NCBI RefSeq assembly: GCF_011045215.1
Contig: NZ_CP049202.1
Length of the DNA stretch: 64,000 nt
Source of the DNA: Escherichia coli
GTDB lineage: Bacteria > Pseudomonadota > Gammaproteobacteria > Enterobacterales > Enterobacteriaceae
Direction: 5' to 3' (one strand)
Shown: positions 45,349 to 58,062 of the stretch, one piece after another
How the letters are laid out: the number at the start of each line of letters is the position of its first letter
How positions within the stretch are numbered: position 1 is the first letter of the stretch
The notes under the pieces: generated by a model
What the model saw: the letters and a program-made list of their open reading frames with translations, nothing else
Told to the model about the DNA's origin: nothing
Database searches by the model: none
Translations under genes and position numbers: made by a program

Positions 45349-45779
45349 AACACACCTTATTTATCTTCCTAAACAAACAATATGTTTTCGTGCTCTCTAT
45401 TCTTCACCTTACGACGAATCGCCATTAGATTCATCATACTAAAATTACGATTCACTATACGAATCAGCAATCATCAAATGACGAATCTAATATAGATTCA
45501 CGCGCCAAGTAAATAGATGTTTTCAAAAAAATAGTCATTACTGAATCATTGACAATTCGTGATAGATTCACTATCGAATCTATCACGAATCCCTGCAATA
45601 TAATTCAAAATTATATAATATAAATACACTTCATTAATTACATGATTTAAAACACAAATCAGCAAAAACTTGTTTTTGCGTGGGGTGTGGTGCTTTTGGT
45701 GGTGAGAACCACCAACCTGTTGAGCCTTTTTGTGGAGTGGGTTAAATTATTTACGGATAAAGTCACCAGAGGTGGAAAA
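45349..45779. promoter_or_regulatory. oriT with nic site between 45688 and 45689 on the plus strand, plus TraM-binding repeats
   Basis: TTTTTGCGTGGGGTGT/GGTGCTTTTGGTGGTGAGAACCACC matches the F oriT nick region; GAATC/GATTC repeat motifs at about 45400-45590. Confidence 0.85.
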
Positions 45780-46289
45780 ATGAAAAAATGGATGTTAGCC
45801 ATCTGCCTGATGTTTATAAATGAGATCTGCCATGCCAATGATTGCTTTGATCTTTCAGGCCGGGATTACAAAATAGATCCTGATTTACTGAGAGCAATAT
45901 CATGGAAAGAATCCCGTTACCGGGTTAATGCCATCGGTATTAATCCGGTAACGGGATATGGCAGCGGACTGATGCAGGTAGATTCCCAGCATTTTAACGA
46001 ACTGGCCCGCTATGGAATTAATCCGGAACATCTGACAACAGATCCCTGCATGAACATTTATACCGGTGCTTATTATCTGGCAATAGCCTTTAAAAAATGG
46101 GGCGTCTCCTGGGAGGCCGTTGGTGCATACAATGCCGGATTCAGGAAGACCGAACGCCAGAACCAGAGACGTCTTGCCTACGCATCAGATGTTTACCGGA
46201 TTTATACCGGGATAAAAAGCAGTAAAGGTATCCGGATTCCGGCCACGAAGAAATCACTTCCGGAAATTAACAGCGTGCAGAACAATTAA
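45780..46289 (+). CDS. lytic transglycosylase, gene X / orf169
   Basis: 169 aa from ATG at 45780; signal peptide; SLT-like core. Confidence 0.85.
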
Positions 46290-46707
46290 TCTTACAGACA
46301 TTGTCAGATACCGGTTATGCCGCAAAAGCGGCATGGAAGGCCACACACAAAAATATCATATGAGTGACAATACTGACTGGCCGAAGCCCCGCGAAGCGGG
46401 AACCCATCTTATATATACCCGGTAACTGCGCAGCCTCCTGCCAGACCATTTTTCGCGGGCACAATATTTACAGACAACCGGAAAGCCAGTTGATGAAATT
46501 GAGGTATATCAGACGACACAGCGATGCCGAAGAATGATAATATAAGTAAAGCCCCGAAAATTTTTCGGGGCTTTACTTATATTATCATGACTTCCACTTT
46601 CTGAACTGTTCGGCAATCACCCATAACGCCTTGTTGATTCTTATATCACCATCAATACCTGTAATGGCTCTTGTCCTAGTATTTTTCCCGGAGGCACTTT
46701 GCCCCGA

Positions 46708-47406
46708 TCATCCACCTTTTATCATATTCTCCTGAACCCGCTGCCAGGTTGTCCAGAGATCGTTCTGTTTATCCTCCCAACGATGGGGAGTAATTATCTG
46801 TTCAGGCGTCACTGGCGTTTTATTTTCATCTTCATACCTGACCATCAGTGCAGCTCTGCTAAATAAATGTTGCTCGTCACTGTTAAGATGAATTTCTTTC
46901 ATCGCCTCCATATTATCAGTGACCTTATCAAAGATACCGAGTACTTCATACGCTCCCTCGATAACCTGCTCGACAATATCACCTTTATGTGGAACGCGGA
47001 TTTCGCCAAAATTATTTCCGCACACCAGGCCATTTGTGCAGACAAAACGAAAAATTCCGGGGATCATCTGATAACTGGATGAACCATCATGTGAATTAAG
47101 CAGGATAATTTCAGGAACTTCCTGCCCGTTAATATGCCCTTCCCTGCGAAGACGTAACATATGTTTACTGTATTCGCGACGTCCCAAATCACGAACCCGA
47201 CTCTGACAGGCAAAGAATGGCTGGAAACCTTCATCACGTAACTTATTGATGATATTGATTGTTGGAATATACGTATAACGTTCACTCCGGGACTCATGTT
47301 TATCACCGGAAAATACCGAAGGCACGAACTGCATTAATTCATCATCCGTTAAAGGACGTTCACGGCGGATGGAATTATACCGACCAAAACGGGAAGCTAA
47401 TCGCAT
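46708..47406 (-). CDS. leading-region hypothetical protein (orf273-position)
   Basis: about 232 aa from internal start; conserved position next to gene X. Confidence 0.5.
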   Translation of the reverse strand: MRLASRFGRYNSIRRERPLTDDELMQFVPSVFSGDKHESRSERYTYIPTINIINKLRDEGFQPFFACQSRVRDLGRREYSKHMLRLRREGHINGQEVPEIILLNSHDGSSSYQMIPGIFRFVCTNGLVCGNNFGEIRVPHKGDIVEQVIEGAYEVLGIFDKVTDNMEAMKEIHLNSDEQHLFSRAALMVRYEDENKTPVTPEQIITPHRWEDKQNDLWTTWQRVQENMIKGG

Positions 47407-47524
47407 AACAGCTACTCCTTTATGAAAGAATAAATTTAATAAAAAATTTTTCCGCTTAATATCATCCCTCCTGGTCACCATTAACAAGATTGCAACAATC
47501 AGGAGGAATATTCATCACATCCAG

Positions 47525-47811
47525 TCAGCAGATCGCCCGGATATCGAGGCCGGCACGCTTAATCTGACGCAGGAACTGTTTGAAGTGATCGGCTTCCGCA
47601 ATGTTGATATGGCGGAACTGCGTATCCACACCCCGGCTGAGCGCGTAGCTATAGCTGAAGGCCATCTTTTCCGGGTGGCTTTTGCGATATTTTTTCAGCT
47701 CAGTCAGGCTGCTGAATTCTAGGACGTCCCACTCTTCCCCGGTGTTTTTTTCTTCCCGGCAACAAGAAGCGTGTACGACGCGGTGTTAACGTGGATATTT
47801 CGGGTACTCAT
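47525..47811 (-). pseudogene. orf95-like leading-region gene with a frameshift in an A7 tract
   Basis: MSTRNIHVNTASYTLLVAGKKKTPG then stop; a 1-nt shift at 47745..47751 restores a 95-codon protein. Confidence 0.5.
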
Positions 47812-47837
47812 CCTGCTTTCTCCTCTCTCTGGTTTTC

Positions 47838-48380
47838 AGCCCCCATCATCTTTTGAGTTTCGGGAGCCGCGGTTTTGACGTTTTGCGGGGACCTGCCTTT
47901 TGTTCCCTCCGGTATTCACCATCATCTTTTTGAGAACCTTCGCCGCAAGGGGCATCACTGCCACGGCCGGAAACGACTGTCCGGGGGCAGACCGCAAAAG
48001 TTTTTGCCTGCTTCTGGGCAAAAACTTTTGCGGGATGTGCATTTCACCCCTGGACTGGCGGAGACGGTTGTGGCTGTATCAGCCCCCGGCGACAGGGGAT
48101 TAAACAGGTGAATGGCACCGGACAGAACAACGGGCAGGGACCCGCCGCAGCGACGTGAAGCGCGGTTTGCGAAACGGCGTTGCCCCTTACATCCCGGCGG
48201 CCTTTTGCCGGGATGCCGGGAGCGCAGGCCACGGCGCGACAGAGGCGGCGCGACCGGAACGGTCGCTGCAAGCCCGGGGTTTCGCGTCAGGGATGGAAGC
48301 CCGCCAGGGCGGAGACAGCTTCGCTGGCTCCGTTCACGACAGCCCGCCCCGCCAGGGGGACGCCCGGAAAAGGCATAAGC
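47838..48380. repeat. ~540-bp structured repeat, copy 1 (candidate single-strand promoter, Frpo/ssi-like)
   Basis: about 95 percent identical to 53226..53790; contains perfect 15-bp inverted repeat GCAAAAGTTTTTGCC...GGCAAAAACTTTTGC and longer imperfect arms. Confidence 0.6.
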
Positions 48381-48709
48381 AGGAGAACAACAAAACAGAC
48401 AATAATCAGGGCAGCAGTAATCAGAGTCAGAACAGGAGGAAAAAGAGAATAATCAAAGGGAAGGTGATGTGATTTCTGACAGGTCATAAACAGAGAAGGC
48501 GGGGGAAAAGAACGGGCGCCGCAGGCGCACGTTCATCCCCGTTCCCGGAGGGAAACGGCCTTCCTGGCAGTCTGGTTGTTCATGCCCGTACAATGCCAGC
48601 AAGGAGAAAGGGGCCACCGGCGAACCAGCAGCCCCTTTATAAAGGCGCTTCAGTGCAGTCAGACCAGCATCAGCCCTGAAAAGGCGGGCCTGCGCCCGCC
48701 TCCAGGTTG

Positions 48710-52369: not shown

Positions 52370-53205
<836 letters not shown>

Positions 53206-53225
53206 GATGTGTCTCCTTCTGTTGA

Positions 53226-53790
53226 TGTTTTCAGCCCCCATCATCTTTTGAGTTTCAGGAGCCGCGGTTTGACGTTTTGCGGGGACCTGCCTTTTGTTCC
53301 CTCCGGTATTCACCATCACCTTTTTGAGAACCTTCGCCGCAAGGGGCATCACTGCCACGGCCGGAAACGACTGTCCGGGGGCAGACCGCAAAAGTTTTTG
53401 CCTGCTTCTGGGCAAAAACTTTTGCGGGATGTGCATTTCACCCCTGGACTGGCGGAGACGGTTGTGGCTGTATCAGCCCCCGGCGACAGGGGATTAAACA
53501 GGTGAATGGCACCGGACAGAACAACGGGCAGGGCCCCGCCGCAACGACGGAGAGCGCGTGCGCGAAACGGCGTTGCCCCTTACATCCCGGCGGCCTTTTG
53601 TCGGGATGCCGGGAGCGCAGGCCACGGCGCGACAGAGGCGGCGCGACCGGAACGGTCGCTGCAAGCCAGGGTTTCGCGTCAGGGATAGAAGCCCGCCAGG
53701 GCGGAGACAGCTCCGCTGGCTCCGTTCACGACAGCCCGCCCCGCCCCGCCAGGGGGACGCCCGGAAAAGCCATAAACAGGAGAGGAACGG
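53226..53790. repeat. ~540-bp structured repeat, copy 2 (candidate single-strand promoter upstream of ssb)
   Basis: near-identical to 47838..48380, ends about 20 bp upstream of the ssb RBS. Confidence 0.6.
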
Positions 53791-53817
53791 AAAGAAGAGG
53801 AAGAGGAAAAAGAAAAA

Positions 53818-53841
53818 GAAGAAGAAGAAGAAGAAGAAGAA
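53818..53841. repeat. (GAA)8 trinucleotide microsatellite
   Basis: gaagaagaagaagaagaagaagaa read directly; absent from repeat copy 1. Confidence 0.9.
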
Positions 53842-54675: not shown

Positions 54676-55101
54676 TCAGTCCAGTGCCGCGTAAATCGCG
54701 TTGCATTCAGGGTGAAATTCGATGTGACGCCACAACTGCGCATCACGCATCCGGTAAAGCTGAGTCAGCCCCGCATCACCGCTGTCGTGGTACAGCCACA
54801 ACTGACGGTTAATCACAAGGGAAGTCAGAATGACACCTGCGGCATCAGCACTCACAGTACGGTCAAACCAGTTTGCACCGTTCACCATGTGGAAACGGTC
54901 GCCATCCGGCATCATGTAACCGCCACCGTCCGGCAGGCGGATGAAGTGCCAGAATCCGCCTTCATATTCCGGCATCATTTTTTTCGCCAGCGCGTATACA
55001 GACGCTTCGGCATACAGAAAATCCTGGCCAAACAGGTAAGGCAGAAAAGACAGACGGTCGCACTCTTCAACGTTCAGAGTGACAGATTTCGCATATTGCA
55101 T
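54676..55101 (-). CDS. antirestriction-like protein (KlcA/ArdB-type, tentative)
   Basis: 141-aa acidic protein at the position where F-like leading regions carry an antirestriction homolog; assignment from recall only. Confidence 0.45.
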
Positions 55102-55138
55102 GATGTTTTCCTCCGTTGTTCACATATTCCGCGACACC

Positions 55139-55372
55139 GGGCGGTGCCGTGCCTCCATAAAAGCCGGGCGATAAGGCGGGGATGCAGGGGCGCAAGGGAA
55201 GCCGCAGCCTGACGCACACGGCTGACGGGAGTTGGAGGGTGAGACCGCGAAATCTGAGCGGGTGAACGACCGGAAAATCACGGCAGACGGGAAGAAAGGA
55301 CCGGGTGACCGCAGCGGCAAAGCGTACCCTTGCATCCCTGCCAGCCCGGCTAAGATGGAGGCACGGCACAGC
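55139..55372. promoter_or_regulatory. long imperfect inverted repeat (candidate single-strand promoter)
   Basis: arms GGCGGTGCCGTGCCTCCAT... and ...ATGGAGGCACGGCACAGCC with about 60-nt pairing, directly upstream of 54676..55101. Confidence 0.45.
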
Positions 55373-55517
55373 CCGCACACGACGCTGAGGCCACATAACT
55401 GAAAAACCACAAGGCCATGCCCTGCATGGCCGGGTAAAGCGGAGCCGGCGGCGACTTCCTTTGTGCTCTGTCCGGGGACCGGCAGGAAAAAGGCGGGGAT
55501 TTACCCCGCCAACGTCA

Positions 55518-57002: not shown

Positions 57003-57686
57003 TTACGCAGCCTCCGGCATAAACCAGTCATCATTCGCGGCCCCCTGCTGCATGGCCCGTTGCACGGCGGCAAGGCGTTGCTGCCCGGCACGGTGATACT
57101 GCTCAAGCAGCTCGATACCGATATACCGGCGTCCGGACTGGAGGGCGGCGACGCAGGTTGAGCCGCTGCCTGCAAACGGGTCCAGCACAATTGCGTTCGG
57201 GTGTGTGAAGCTCTCAATCAGCGGTTGCAGGCTGGTAACGGGCTTTTCCGTCGGGTGATGGCGATTGCCCGAATATTTCCAGCCCAGCACGTCCGGCGGC
57301 GGGTTTTGTGGCAGACGTGGACGGCCTTTTGCCAGGATGTAGGCGCATTCGTGGCGATAGCCCACATATGCGGCCTTCGATGTGTAGTTTTTGGTGAAGA
57401 CCAGGTGACCAACAACGCTGAATCCCGCATTTTTCCAGGCGGCAATAAAGCGATCGACGCGGTTCCAGCCATAGAAGCTCACCATTAACGCGTCTTTTTT
57501 CAGCACGCGGTACATCTCATTACAGGCCGGTTGCAGCCATTCATCGGTTTTATCTCCGGCGATGGTGCGCCCGGAACGGTCACGAAAACCGACGAGATAT
57601 GGCGGGTCAGTTAATATGAAATCAATGGCGTTATCAGGGATACGCGTCATAACATCGATGCAGTTACCAAGAACAAAACGGGACAT
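57003..57686 (-). CDS. orphan DNA methyltransferase (DPPY motif, N6-adenine/N4-cytosine class)
   Basis: 227 aa with DPPY catalytic motif and FAGSGST AdoMet-binding motif; no adjacent restriction endonuclease gene. Confidence 0.85.
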   Translation of the reverse strand: MSRFVLGNCIDVMTRIPDNAIDFILTDPPYLVGFRDRSGRTIAGDKTDEWLQPACNEMYRVLKKDALMVSFYGWNRVDRFIAAWKNAGFSVVGHLVFTKNYTSKAAYVGYRHECAYILAKGRPRLPQNPPPDVLGWKYSGNRHHPTEKPVTSLQPLIESFTHPNAIVLDPFAGSGSTCVAALQSGRRYIGIELLEQYHRAGQQRLAAVQRAMQQGAANDDWFMPEAA

Positions 57687-58034
57687 AATAACGCTCCTTC
57701 TCTTACAGAGGGCACCGGGAGGGCACCCCTGTGGTGCCCGTTCCCCGCTGCCTGTGGGCTGTTCACCGCGTCCGGTAACGGGTCAGGCCGACCGTGGAAT
57801 ATCGCAGCCGTCGTCTTTTTGACGGCGAGAATATGCCGCGAAAGCGGCTTGAAGGGCGTTCATCAGAAAAGGGCGACAGGCTGGCGTACACTGTCACCGG
57901 TACCAGCCGGGAGCAGTAAAAGCGCCCGTCCCGTGCCCGCCGGACGCGGGACACTGACCACAGGCAGCGTTCCTGCCGCGCCGCGTCAGCCGGCGCAGTA
58001 AAAAGAGGAGCACGGCGACATCCTTTGTCGGAAA

Positions 58035-58062
58035 AGAAACGGGCGGTTGCCCGCCCGTCTCC
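58035..58062 (-). terminator. rho-independent terminator-like hairpin after the 323-aa ORF
   Basis: GGGCGG-GCAA-CCGCCC then U-rich run on the minus strand. Confidence 0.45.

Follow-up and report, generated by a model that had tools for sequence, protein, structure and literature searches.

The window analyzed here, which is the whole 64-kb stretch of Escherichia coli DNA, contains two long near-identical repeats located directly in front of minus-strand gene blocks, one beginning with ygeA (orf95) and the other with ssb. The question raised by this locus is what such a pair of repeats does at these two positions. A preliminary description made from the letters of the sequence proposed that they are promoters of the Frpo/ssi type, which function on single-stranded DNA. 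We examined this proposal by alignment, folding, and comparison with known plasmids, together with the functional literature on Frpo (Couturier 2023, Samuel 2024, Wen 2025, and the Fraikin 2026 preprint). The two repeats are very probably Frpo1 and Frpo2 of an F-like (IncF) plasmid, that is, class 1 leading-region single-strand-DNA promoters, for which the function is carried over by homology from F and ColIb-P9. These elements are already known in detail, and the present locus is one further instance of them.

Extent and Identity of the Repeats

Two repeats of approximately 540 bp had been placed at 47838-48380 and 53226-53790. Both exist, and these limits were already close to the refined units that we denote copy A and copy B (Table 1). 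The copies are in direct orientation with an offset of 5394 nt (5.39 kb) and exhibited 95.9% identity in blastn, differing by scattered substitutions, a 5-nt CCCGC indel, and three 1-nt indels. The spacing to the genes had to be corrected, as the repeats were described to end about 20 bp upstream of the RBS; their ends in fact abut the RBS and are 21-22 nt from the start codons at 47811 (ygeA) and 53205 (ssb). At the other side, a purine-rich (GAA)n-like tract (53796-53840) is located directly past the distal end of copy B, and the matching flank of copy A is A-rich and non-repetitive.

Table 1. Positions of the features described in the text, numbered along the 64-kb window.
Feature	Position	Strand	Description
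oriT nick region	45662-45710	+	exact match to the 49-nt TraI substrate; nic between 45688 and 45689
ssiE homologue	46284-46472		between the SLT gene and ygeB; 97.9% identical to F ssiE, the other leading-region single-strand initiation signal
ygeB (DUF932)	46585-47406	-	second gene of the copy A unit; premature TGA at 46708-46710 (TTA in F)
ygeA (orf95)	47526-47811	-	first gene downstream of copy A; frameshifted
Copy A, whole repeat unit	47832-48391 (560 nt)	+	orthologue of F Frpo1 (= ssp1a, class 1 single-strand promoter, ssiD)
Copy A, domain 1 hairpin	47857-48175 (319 nt)	+	-99.4 kcal/mol on + vs -85.4 on -
Copy A, candidate -35 on left arm (TTGAGA)	47930-47935	+ (left arm, non-template)	invariant in 10 of 10 aligned copies; pairs with right-arm bases in the consensus fold
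Copy A, candidate -10 on left arm (CATCAC)	47953-47958	+	17 nt after TTGAGA, in the conserved internal loop; predicted start opposite template T at ~48069
Copy A, hairpin tip	47992-48033	+	perfect 17-bp A+T-rich inverted repeat with 8-nt loop
Copy A, candidate boxes on right arm	TGGACT 48051-48056, 18-nt spacer, TGTATC 48075-48080	+ (right arm)	predicted start opposite ~47943
Copy A, domain 2	48176-48391 (~215 nt)	+	G+C-rich, several predicted small hairpins; inside the published Frpo1 deletion
Plasmid ssb	52666-53205	-	first gene downstream of copy B; intact, 179 aa
Copy B, whole repeat unit	53227-53788 (562 nt)	+	position of F Frpo2 (ssp1b); ssb immediately downstream
Copy B, domain 1 hairpin	53252-53568	+	-96.6 kcal/mol on + vs -86.7 on -; tip repeat 53386-53427
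Copy B, candidate boxes	left arm 53324-53329 / 53347-53352; right arm 53445-53450 / 53469-53474	+	positional equivalents of the copy A candidates
Class 2 / Frpo3 / ssp2 element	55131-55465 (arms 55138-55169 / 55344-55375)	+	long hairpin, unrelated to the repeats
Class 3 candidate	~57690-58060	+	-109.5 kcal/mol, z = -7.4; upstream of DNA methylase gene 57003-57686

For comparison with published elements, the reference F ssiD/Frpo sequence D90178 was taken from supplementary file 4 of Samuel et al. 2024, which lists known Frpo/ssi sequences. It was aligned in the plus orientation with both copies, giving 95.2% identity to 47840-48189 of copy A and 93.2% to 53235-53582 of copy B. When the 560-nt units were compared with F itself (NC_002483), copy A was 95.9% identical to the region upstream of ygeA and 91.2% to that upstream of ssb, and the corresponding values for copy B were 92.9% and 89.1%. 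These two F regions, located ~5 kb apart with flm between them, received the names Frpo1 and Frpo2 from Couturier et al. 2023, who showed that each is required for the early production of downstream proteins in transconjugants. The homology arms of their lambda-Red deletion oligos (OL473/474 and OL476/477) stop at both boundaries of the repeat unit, which indicates that the repeats first noted at ~540 bp are Frpo1 and Frpo2 as now defined. According to a 2026 preprint, the second copy had been spotted by Masai and Arai already in 1997. The Frpo identity is hence established by the D90178 homology, the alignment with F Frpo1 and Frpo2, the deletion oligos, and an F-like gene order, all of which support the proposal of Frpo/ssi-type single-strand promoters on the transferred strand.

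Copy A shares with F Frpo1 (Frpo/ssiD; Masai & Arai 1997, Couturier et al. 2023) 95-96% of its sequence, the strand, the hairpin, and the position in the order hok/sok - element - ygeA - ygeB - ssiE - orf169 - oriT. It differs from F Frpo1 in a small number of substitutions, among them one compensatory pair through which the 17-bp tip becomes perfect, and in that both ygeA and ygeB behind it are broken. Copy B occupies the same position as F Frpo2 (Couturier et al. 2023) with the same operon, ssb-yfjA-yfjB-psiB-psiA, and 89% identity, but its upper hairpin is of the Frpo1 type. In the range of unit positions 161-240, copy B (53387-53466) is 100% identical to copy A (47992-48071), whereas Frpo1 and Frpo2 of F are only 74-76% alike there. 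This Frpo1-type upper hairpin accounts for the 96% similarity between copies A and B as compared with 89% for the F pair (by blastn; 92% is given in the paper of Couturier et al.). Judged from these alignments, segments have clearly been exchanged between copies. The right-arm base of copy B resembles a Klebsiella copy.

At least 5000 plasmids in PLSDB contain elements of this kind; the listed records mostly have them at 2-3 places, with up to 7 places in a single record. The layout of promoter and early operon is common to F, a Klebsiella IncF plasmid, and a Salmonella Typhimurium IncF plasmid. Three class 1 copies were identified in the Klebsiella IncF plasmid CP148997.1 (20001-20319, 25477-25795, and 28777-29093), the third of which is located upstream of a DUF3560/methyltransferase block. 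The number of class 1 copies therefore varies with the number of early operons.

Plasmid Context and Transferred Strand

Rfam matches in the window comprised CopA, two sok RNAs, FinP, and the traJ leader, which identify it as an IncF plasmid, and the tra genes are on the minus strand. The earlier statement that the plus strand is the transferred strand, and hence the template for the minus-strand genes, was examined by using the 49-nt TraI single-strand substrate of Ilangovan et al. 2017 (PMC5422253). Its exact match on the plus strand confirmed that statement and, with the location of nic, implies that this strand enters the recipient with the 5' end first, towards higher coordinates. Strand and orientation were thus established for both elements. 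Copies A and B are located 2.1 and 7.5 kb beyond nic, respectively, that is, in the leading region, and ygeA and ssb are both on the minus strand. The order beyond oriT is as in F: SLT/orf169, ssiE, ygeB, ygeA, copy A, hok/sok, psiA, psiB, yfjB, yfjA, ssb, and copy B, in which hok/sok (flm) is again located between the two copies. A perfect 27-bp palindrome with a 1-nt centre (ATGATAATATAAGTAAAGCCCCGAAAA / TTTTCGGGGCTTTACTTATATTATCAT) was also detected at 46534-46588. SLT and ygeB converge on this palindrome, which overlaps the stop codon of ygeB and probably acts as a bidirectional terminator.

Folding of the Transferred Strand

The fold energy of the plus strand was evaluated to be -158.5 kcal/mol for copy A (z = -8.3) and -150.9 kcal/mol for copy B (z = -6.8), and the complement of copy A folded at -140.9 kcal/mol. 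A stable hairpin on the transferred strand, on which the promoter proposal depends, is hence present in both copies. Each fold is bipartite and consists of a 319-nt imperfect hairpin and a distal G+C-rich domain of ~215 nt. The longer imperfect arms noted in the preliminary description are real and correspond to this hairpin. The perfect inverted repeat at its tip (CCGCAAAAGTTTTTGCC / GGCAAAAACTTTTGCGG; 47992-48008/48017-48033 in copy A and 53386-53402/53411-53427 in copy B) was also found as described except for its length, which is 17 bp with an 8-nt loop and not 15 bp. When the hairpin was folded alone, the plus strand was more stable than the minus strand by 10-14 kcal/mol and contained 6-7 G-T pairs compared with 2-3, so that the fold is strand-biased.

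To locate comparable structures, a 300-nt folding window was slid across the whole 64 kb with a cut-off of -75 kcal/mol on the plus strand. Only four loci fell below -75 kcal/mol per 300 nt, namely the two repeats, 55101-55400, and 57701-58000, which reproduces the survey of F and pESBL by Wen et al. 2025. The repeat signal, consisting of 560 nt at 96% identity, the above z values, and the most stable 300-nt windows in the 64 kb, is far beyond chance.

Conservation of the fold was examined with an alignment of ten class 1 copies, of which two each were obtained from the window, F, a Klebsiella plasmid, and an insect metagenome, and one each from Serratia and a Salmonella Typhimurium IncF plasmid. 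RNAalifold gave a single long hairpin with 92 consensus pairs for these copies, in which 95.4% of the alignment cells were paired, compared with 42-47% when the partners were slid by 1-3 columns. Changes on both sides, which preserve the pairing, were observed for 13 of the 92 pairs, and neither this value nor the covariation score was reached in any of 500 shuffles. Compensatory conservation of the fold is hence established. The alignment also contains invariant G-T wobbles, for example at columns 20/323 and 110/235, which would be C-A mismatches on the other strand. Among the family members, the A+T-rich tip was the most variable part of the hairpin, and the insect-metagenome copies have a short G+C hairpin in its place; as the tip is variable and absent from these copies, it was rejected as an essential element. 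A search across genome contigs with the loose two-block pattern GTCCGGGG N45-75 CCCTGGAC gave only chance matches in G+C-rich genomes. The distal domain is kept in the F, Klebsiella, and Salmonella plasmid copies, and its first ~70 nt are recognisable in the ColIb-P9 and insect copies. Covariation in this domain was also sought across the family copies, for which the variation was too low to give a signal either way.

These data bear on another explanation, in which the repeats would be duplicated DNA of a passive kind (for example, a small mobile repeat or one generated by recombination) or would code for small hypothetical proteins. ORFs of 67-105 codons overlap the repeats, and one of them, a 68-codon minus-strand ORF at 47836-48042, is annotated by PGAP as a "hypothetical protein" of 68 aa inside the element in many records; the exchange of segments between copies would also be in line with such duplicated DNA. 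However, the variation tracks base-pairing and not codons, as seen in the 13 compensatory pairs, and the fold is strand-biased. No NCBIfam match was obtained for any ORF internal to the repeats, no Rfam family was found on the repeats at the gathering score or at E up to 1, and there are no transposase and no terminal repeats; the repeats are thus neither an IS nor a coding sequence, either of which would have refuted the promoter proposal. Furthermore, their position and orientation relative to the genes are fixed across thousands of plasmids, and experimental Frpo deletions give a phenotype (Couturier 2023). Passive or coding DNA is therefore a highly improbable explanation. The PGAP "hypothetical protein" and a 256-codon in-frame extension of ssb through copy B (52666-53436, minus strand) are likely annotation artefacts.

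Candidate Promoter Boxes

A linear scan for sigma-70-like sites with at least 9 of 12 matches detected none on either strand of the duplex. Our own PWM scan of 10 family members, also performed on both strands, yielded no hexamer pair near the consensus in quality and spacing, and the best -10 candidates lack either A-11 or T-7. The repeats hence contain no conventional double-strand promoter at these thresholds, with which silence in the duplex state fits, and the boxes have to be inferred from conservation. TTGACG at 47875 was the best linear match to a -35 element (with TTTTGT), and it was rejected, as no part of the left arm varies more than the sequence 17 nt downstream of it. The consensus fold possesses one conserved internal loop, which is formed by columns 97-101 and 244-249 and is common to the two box placements considered below.

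In the first placement, the candidate -35 TTGAGA and the candidate -10 CATCAC are both located on the left arm (Table 1). The ssiD record of the 1990s reads CATACT at the position of CATCAC, which would make a near-canonical pair with TTGAGA. To enlarge the sample, 99 distinct metagenome copies were gathered via a hairpin-base pattern that favours neither placement. TTGAGA was invariant in 98 of 98 anchored copies, though this count is partly circular because the anchor contains the hexamer (up to 2 mismatches). The -10 region followed at a spacing of 17 nt in 75 of these 98 copies; in the others, whose -10 regions are of the TAAAC type, the spacing was 18-19 nt. Within the internal loop, the left strand was identical in ~72 F-type copies, and the right strand occurred in at least four forms, none of which is complementary to it. 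If the boxes are so placed, the polymerase would use the right arm as the template, start opposite ~48069, where there are two invariant wobble pairs, and read round the tip to the genes. Two observations speak against this placement. In the minimum-energy folds of the window's own copies, TTGAGA sits in a small side loop outside the stem, and the functional 290-nt Frpo2 fragment of Samuel et al. 2024 stops short of the partner of TTGAGA, which fits the right arm better.

The alternative is a promoter on the right arm, composed of TGGACT, an 18-nt spacer, and TGTATC, which would use the tip as an UP-like element and fire towards the hairpin base, giving a leader of ~130 nt instead of ~260 nt. 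The conserved TGGACA-like hexamer has 4-5 of 6 matches, with all of its bases paired, and the truncated Frpo2 fragment of Samuel 2024 retains all parts of this arrangement. Samuel et al. 2024 also reported an A+T-rich UP element upstream of the -35, and the class 2 element in the window exhibits equal geometry with a good TAAGAT in a mismatched bubble of its right arm. However, family members differ in the hexamer spacing on the right arm, which ranges over 17-21 nt and amounts to 21 nt in the Frpo2 type, an element with activity in vivo. None of the -10 candidates TGTATC, TGTCTT, TGTCTA, and TGTCTC has A-11 or T-7, and they differ between copies in which the left-arm loop strand is invariant; some family members have no A+T-rich tip. 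On this evidence we favour the left-arm placement, to which we give about an even chance of being correct, over the right-arm placement, which is a possible but less probable location of the boxes.

Genes Downstream of the Repeats

The window is unusual in one respect only, namely the disruption of the two genes that copy A serves. In ygeA, the T-run at 47745-47751 consists of 7 residues instead of 8 as in F, so that the reading frame stops after 30 codons. NZ_CP061340 has this run of 7 as well; the frameshift may be genuine or may reflect a sequencing error in the homopolymer. In ygeB, the premature stop is located at residue 233 of 273 and is absent from F and NZ_CP061340. A search of PLSDB and RefSeq E. 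coli gave no record that is 100% identical over 46560-47835, the best being 99.7%. Couturier et al. reported that loss of ygeA strongly reduces F transfer and that ygeB alone is not deletable. As ygeA and ygeB are both broken, copy A cannot serve their expression in this plasmid. If the lesions are real and old, copy A may have been kept for a job other than driving its operon, most plausibly the RNA priming of the complementary strand, to which the distal domain (48176-48391) could contribute; we consider this quite improbable.

Another reading is that the elements are primarily single-strand initiation (ssi) signals. It overlaps the main explanation, as priming is a second documented function. 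The first isolation of ssiD was as a priming signal (Nomura 1991), and Masai & Arai described transcripts that persist as RNA-DNA hybrids usable by DNA polymerase. The Fraikin 2026 preprint reported rifampicin-sensitive early conversion near psiA and ygeB, and copy A is intact here despite the broken ygeA and ygeB. These lesions may however be recent or sequencing errors. In addition, F without Frpo1 or Frpo2 loses the early production of downstream proteins (Couturier 2023), and every copy abuts an RBS and is oriented towards the gene in all plasmids examined. A primary role in initiation is therefore rather unlikely, and we retain the reading of the repeats as promoters for the genes behind them.

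Related Elements

The other two loci of the folding scan are also located in front of genes. The hairpin at 55131-55465 corresponds to class 2, a published single-strand promoter that is also a replication roadblock. The locus of the folding scan, 55101-55400, exhibits 82.8% identity to the candidate "Frpo' 4" of Samuel et al. 2024, and the hairpin is located directly upstream of an antirestriction (klcA/ardB-like) gene (54676-55101), with TAAGAT at 55351-55356 in the mismatched bubble of the right arm. The segment at ~57690-58060 is expected to be the class 3 single-strand promoter, an assignment made by position. Class 2 (Frpo3/ssp2) and class 3 elements of F and pESBL (Wen 2025; Fraikin 2026 preprint; bioRxiv 2025.04.03.647016) share with the two repeats the leading region and the strand and, like them, are long hairpins directly upstream of genes (anti-restriction and methylase, respectively); both classes are present in the window. 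They have no sequence similarity to the two repeats, and class 2 is in addition a replication roadblock.

The elements ssi1-ssi3 of IncI1 ColIb-P9 / pESBL (Bates 1999; Nasim 2004; "class 1" of Wen et al. 2025) are a further related group. They have in common with the repeats the core CTGTCCGGGGG ... CCCCTGGAC round the A+T-rich tip, a hairpin architecture in which a -35-like hexamer is followed at 17 nt by a mismatched loop, and part of the distal domain (GGAGCGCAGG.CACGGCGCGAC). Unlike the repeats of the window, with which they exhibit ~75% identity over ~115 nt, they possess a different lower stem, and TGGACC replaces TTGAGA.

The minus-strand origin of M13/f1 and the sso of rolling-circle plasmids are likewise single-strand hairpins that are recognised by host RNA polymerase to begin RNA synthesis. 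They differ from the repeats in that only a short primer is made and no gene is expressed, and their sequences are unrelated.

Proposed Mechanism and Significance

The following steps have been established in the literature for F and ColIb-P9, and their function is carried over here by homology. During conjugation, the plus strand, nicked between 45688 and 45689, would enter the recipient with its 5' end first, and each repeat, while still single-stranded, would fold into the long imperfect hairpin. The stem may thereby restore the -35 and -10 elements in double-stranded form, the -10 region being mismatched. There, the host sigma-70 RNA polymerase, aided by SSB, would start and transcribe the transferred strand towards lower coordinates. 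Copy A would serve ygeA-ygeB, and copy B would serve ssb-yfjA-yfjB(parB-like)-psiB-psiA. The transcripts may also prime the synthesis of the complementary strand. Once the strand has been copied, the hairpin would no longer form and the genes would fall silent.

The practical value of this result lies in annotation, as the region is to be labelled Frpo1/Frpo2. In biological terms, Frpo elements explain how genes for SOS inhibition, ssDNA binding, and anti-defence are expressed within minutes of entry, before the second strand is made. This was established for F and ColIb-P9 and extended genome-wide by Samuel 2024 and Wen 2025, and such early expression of plasmid genes matters for the spread of antibiotic resistance.
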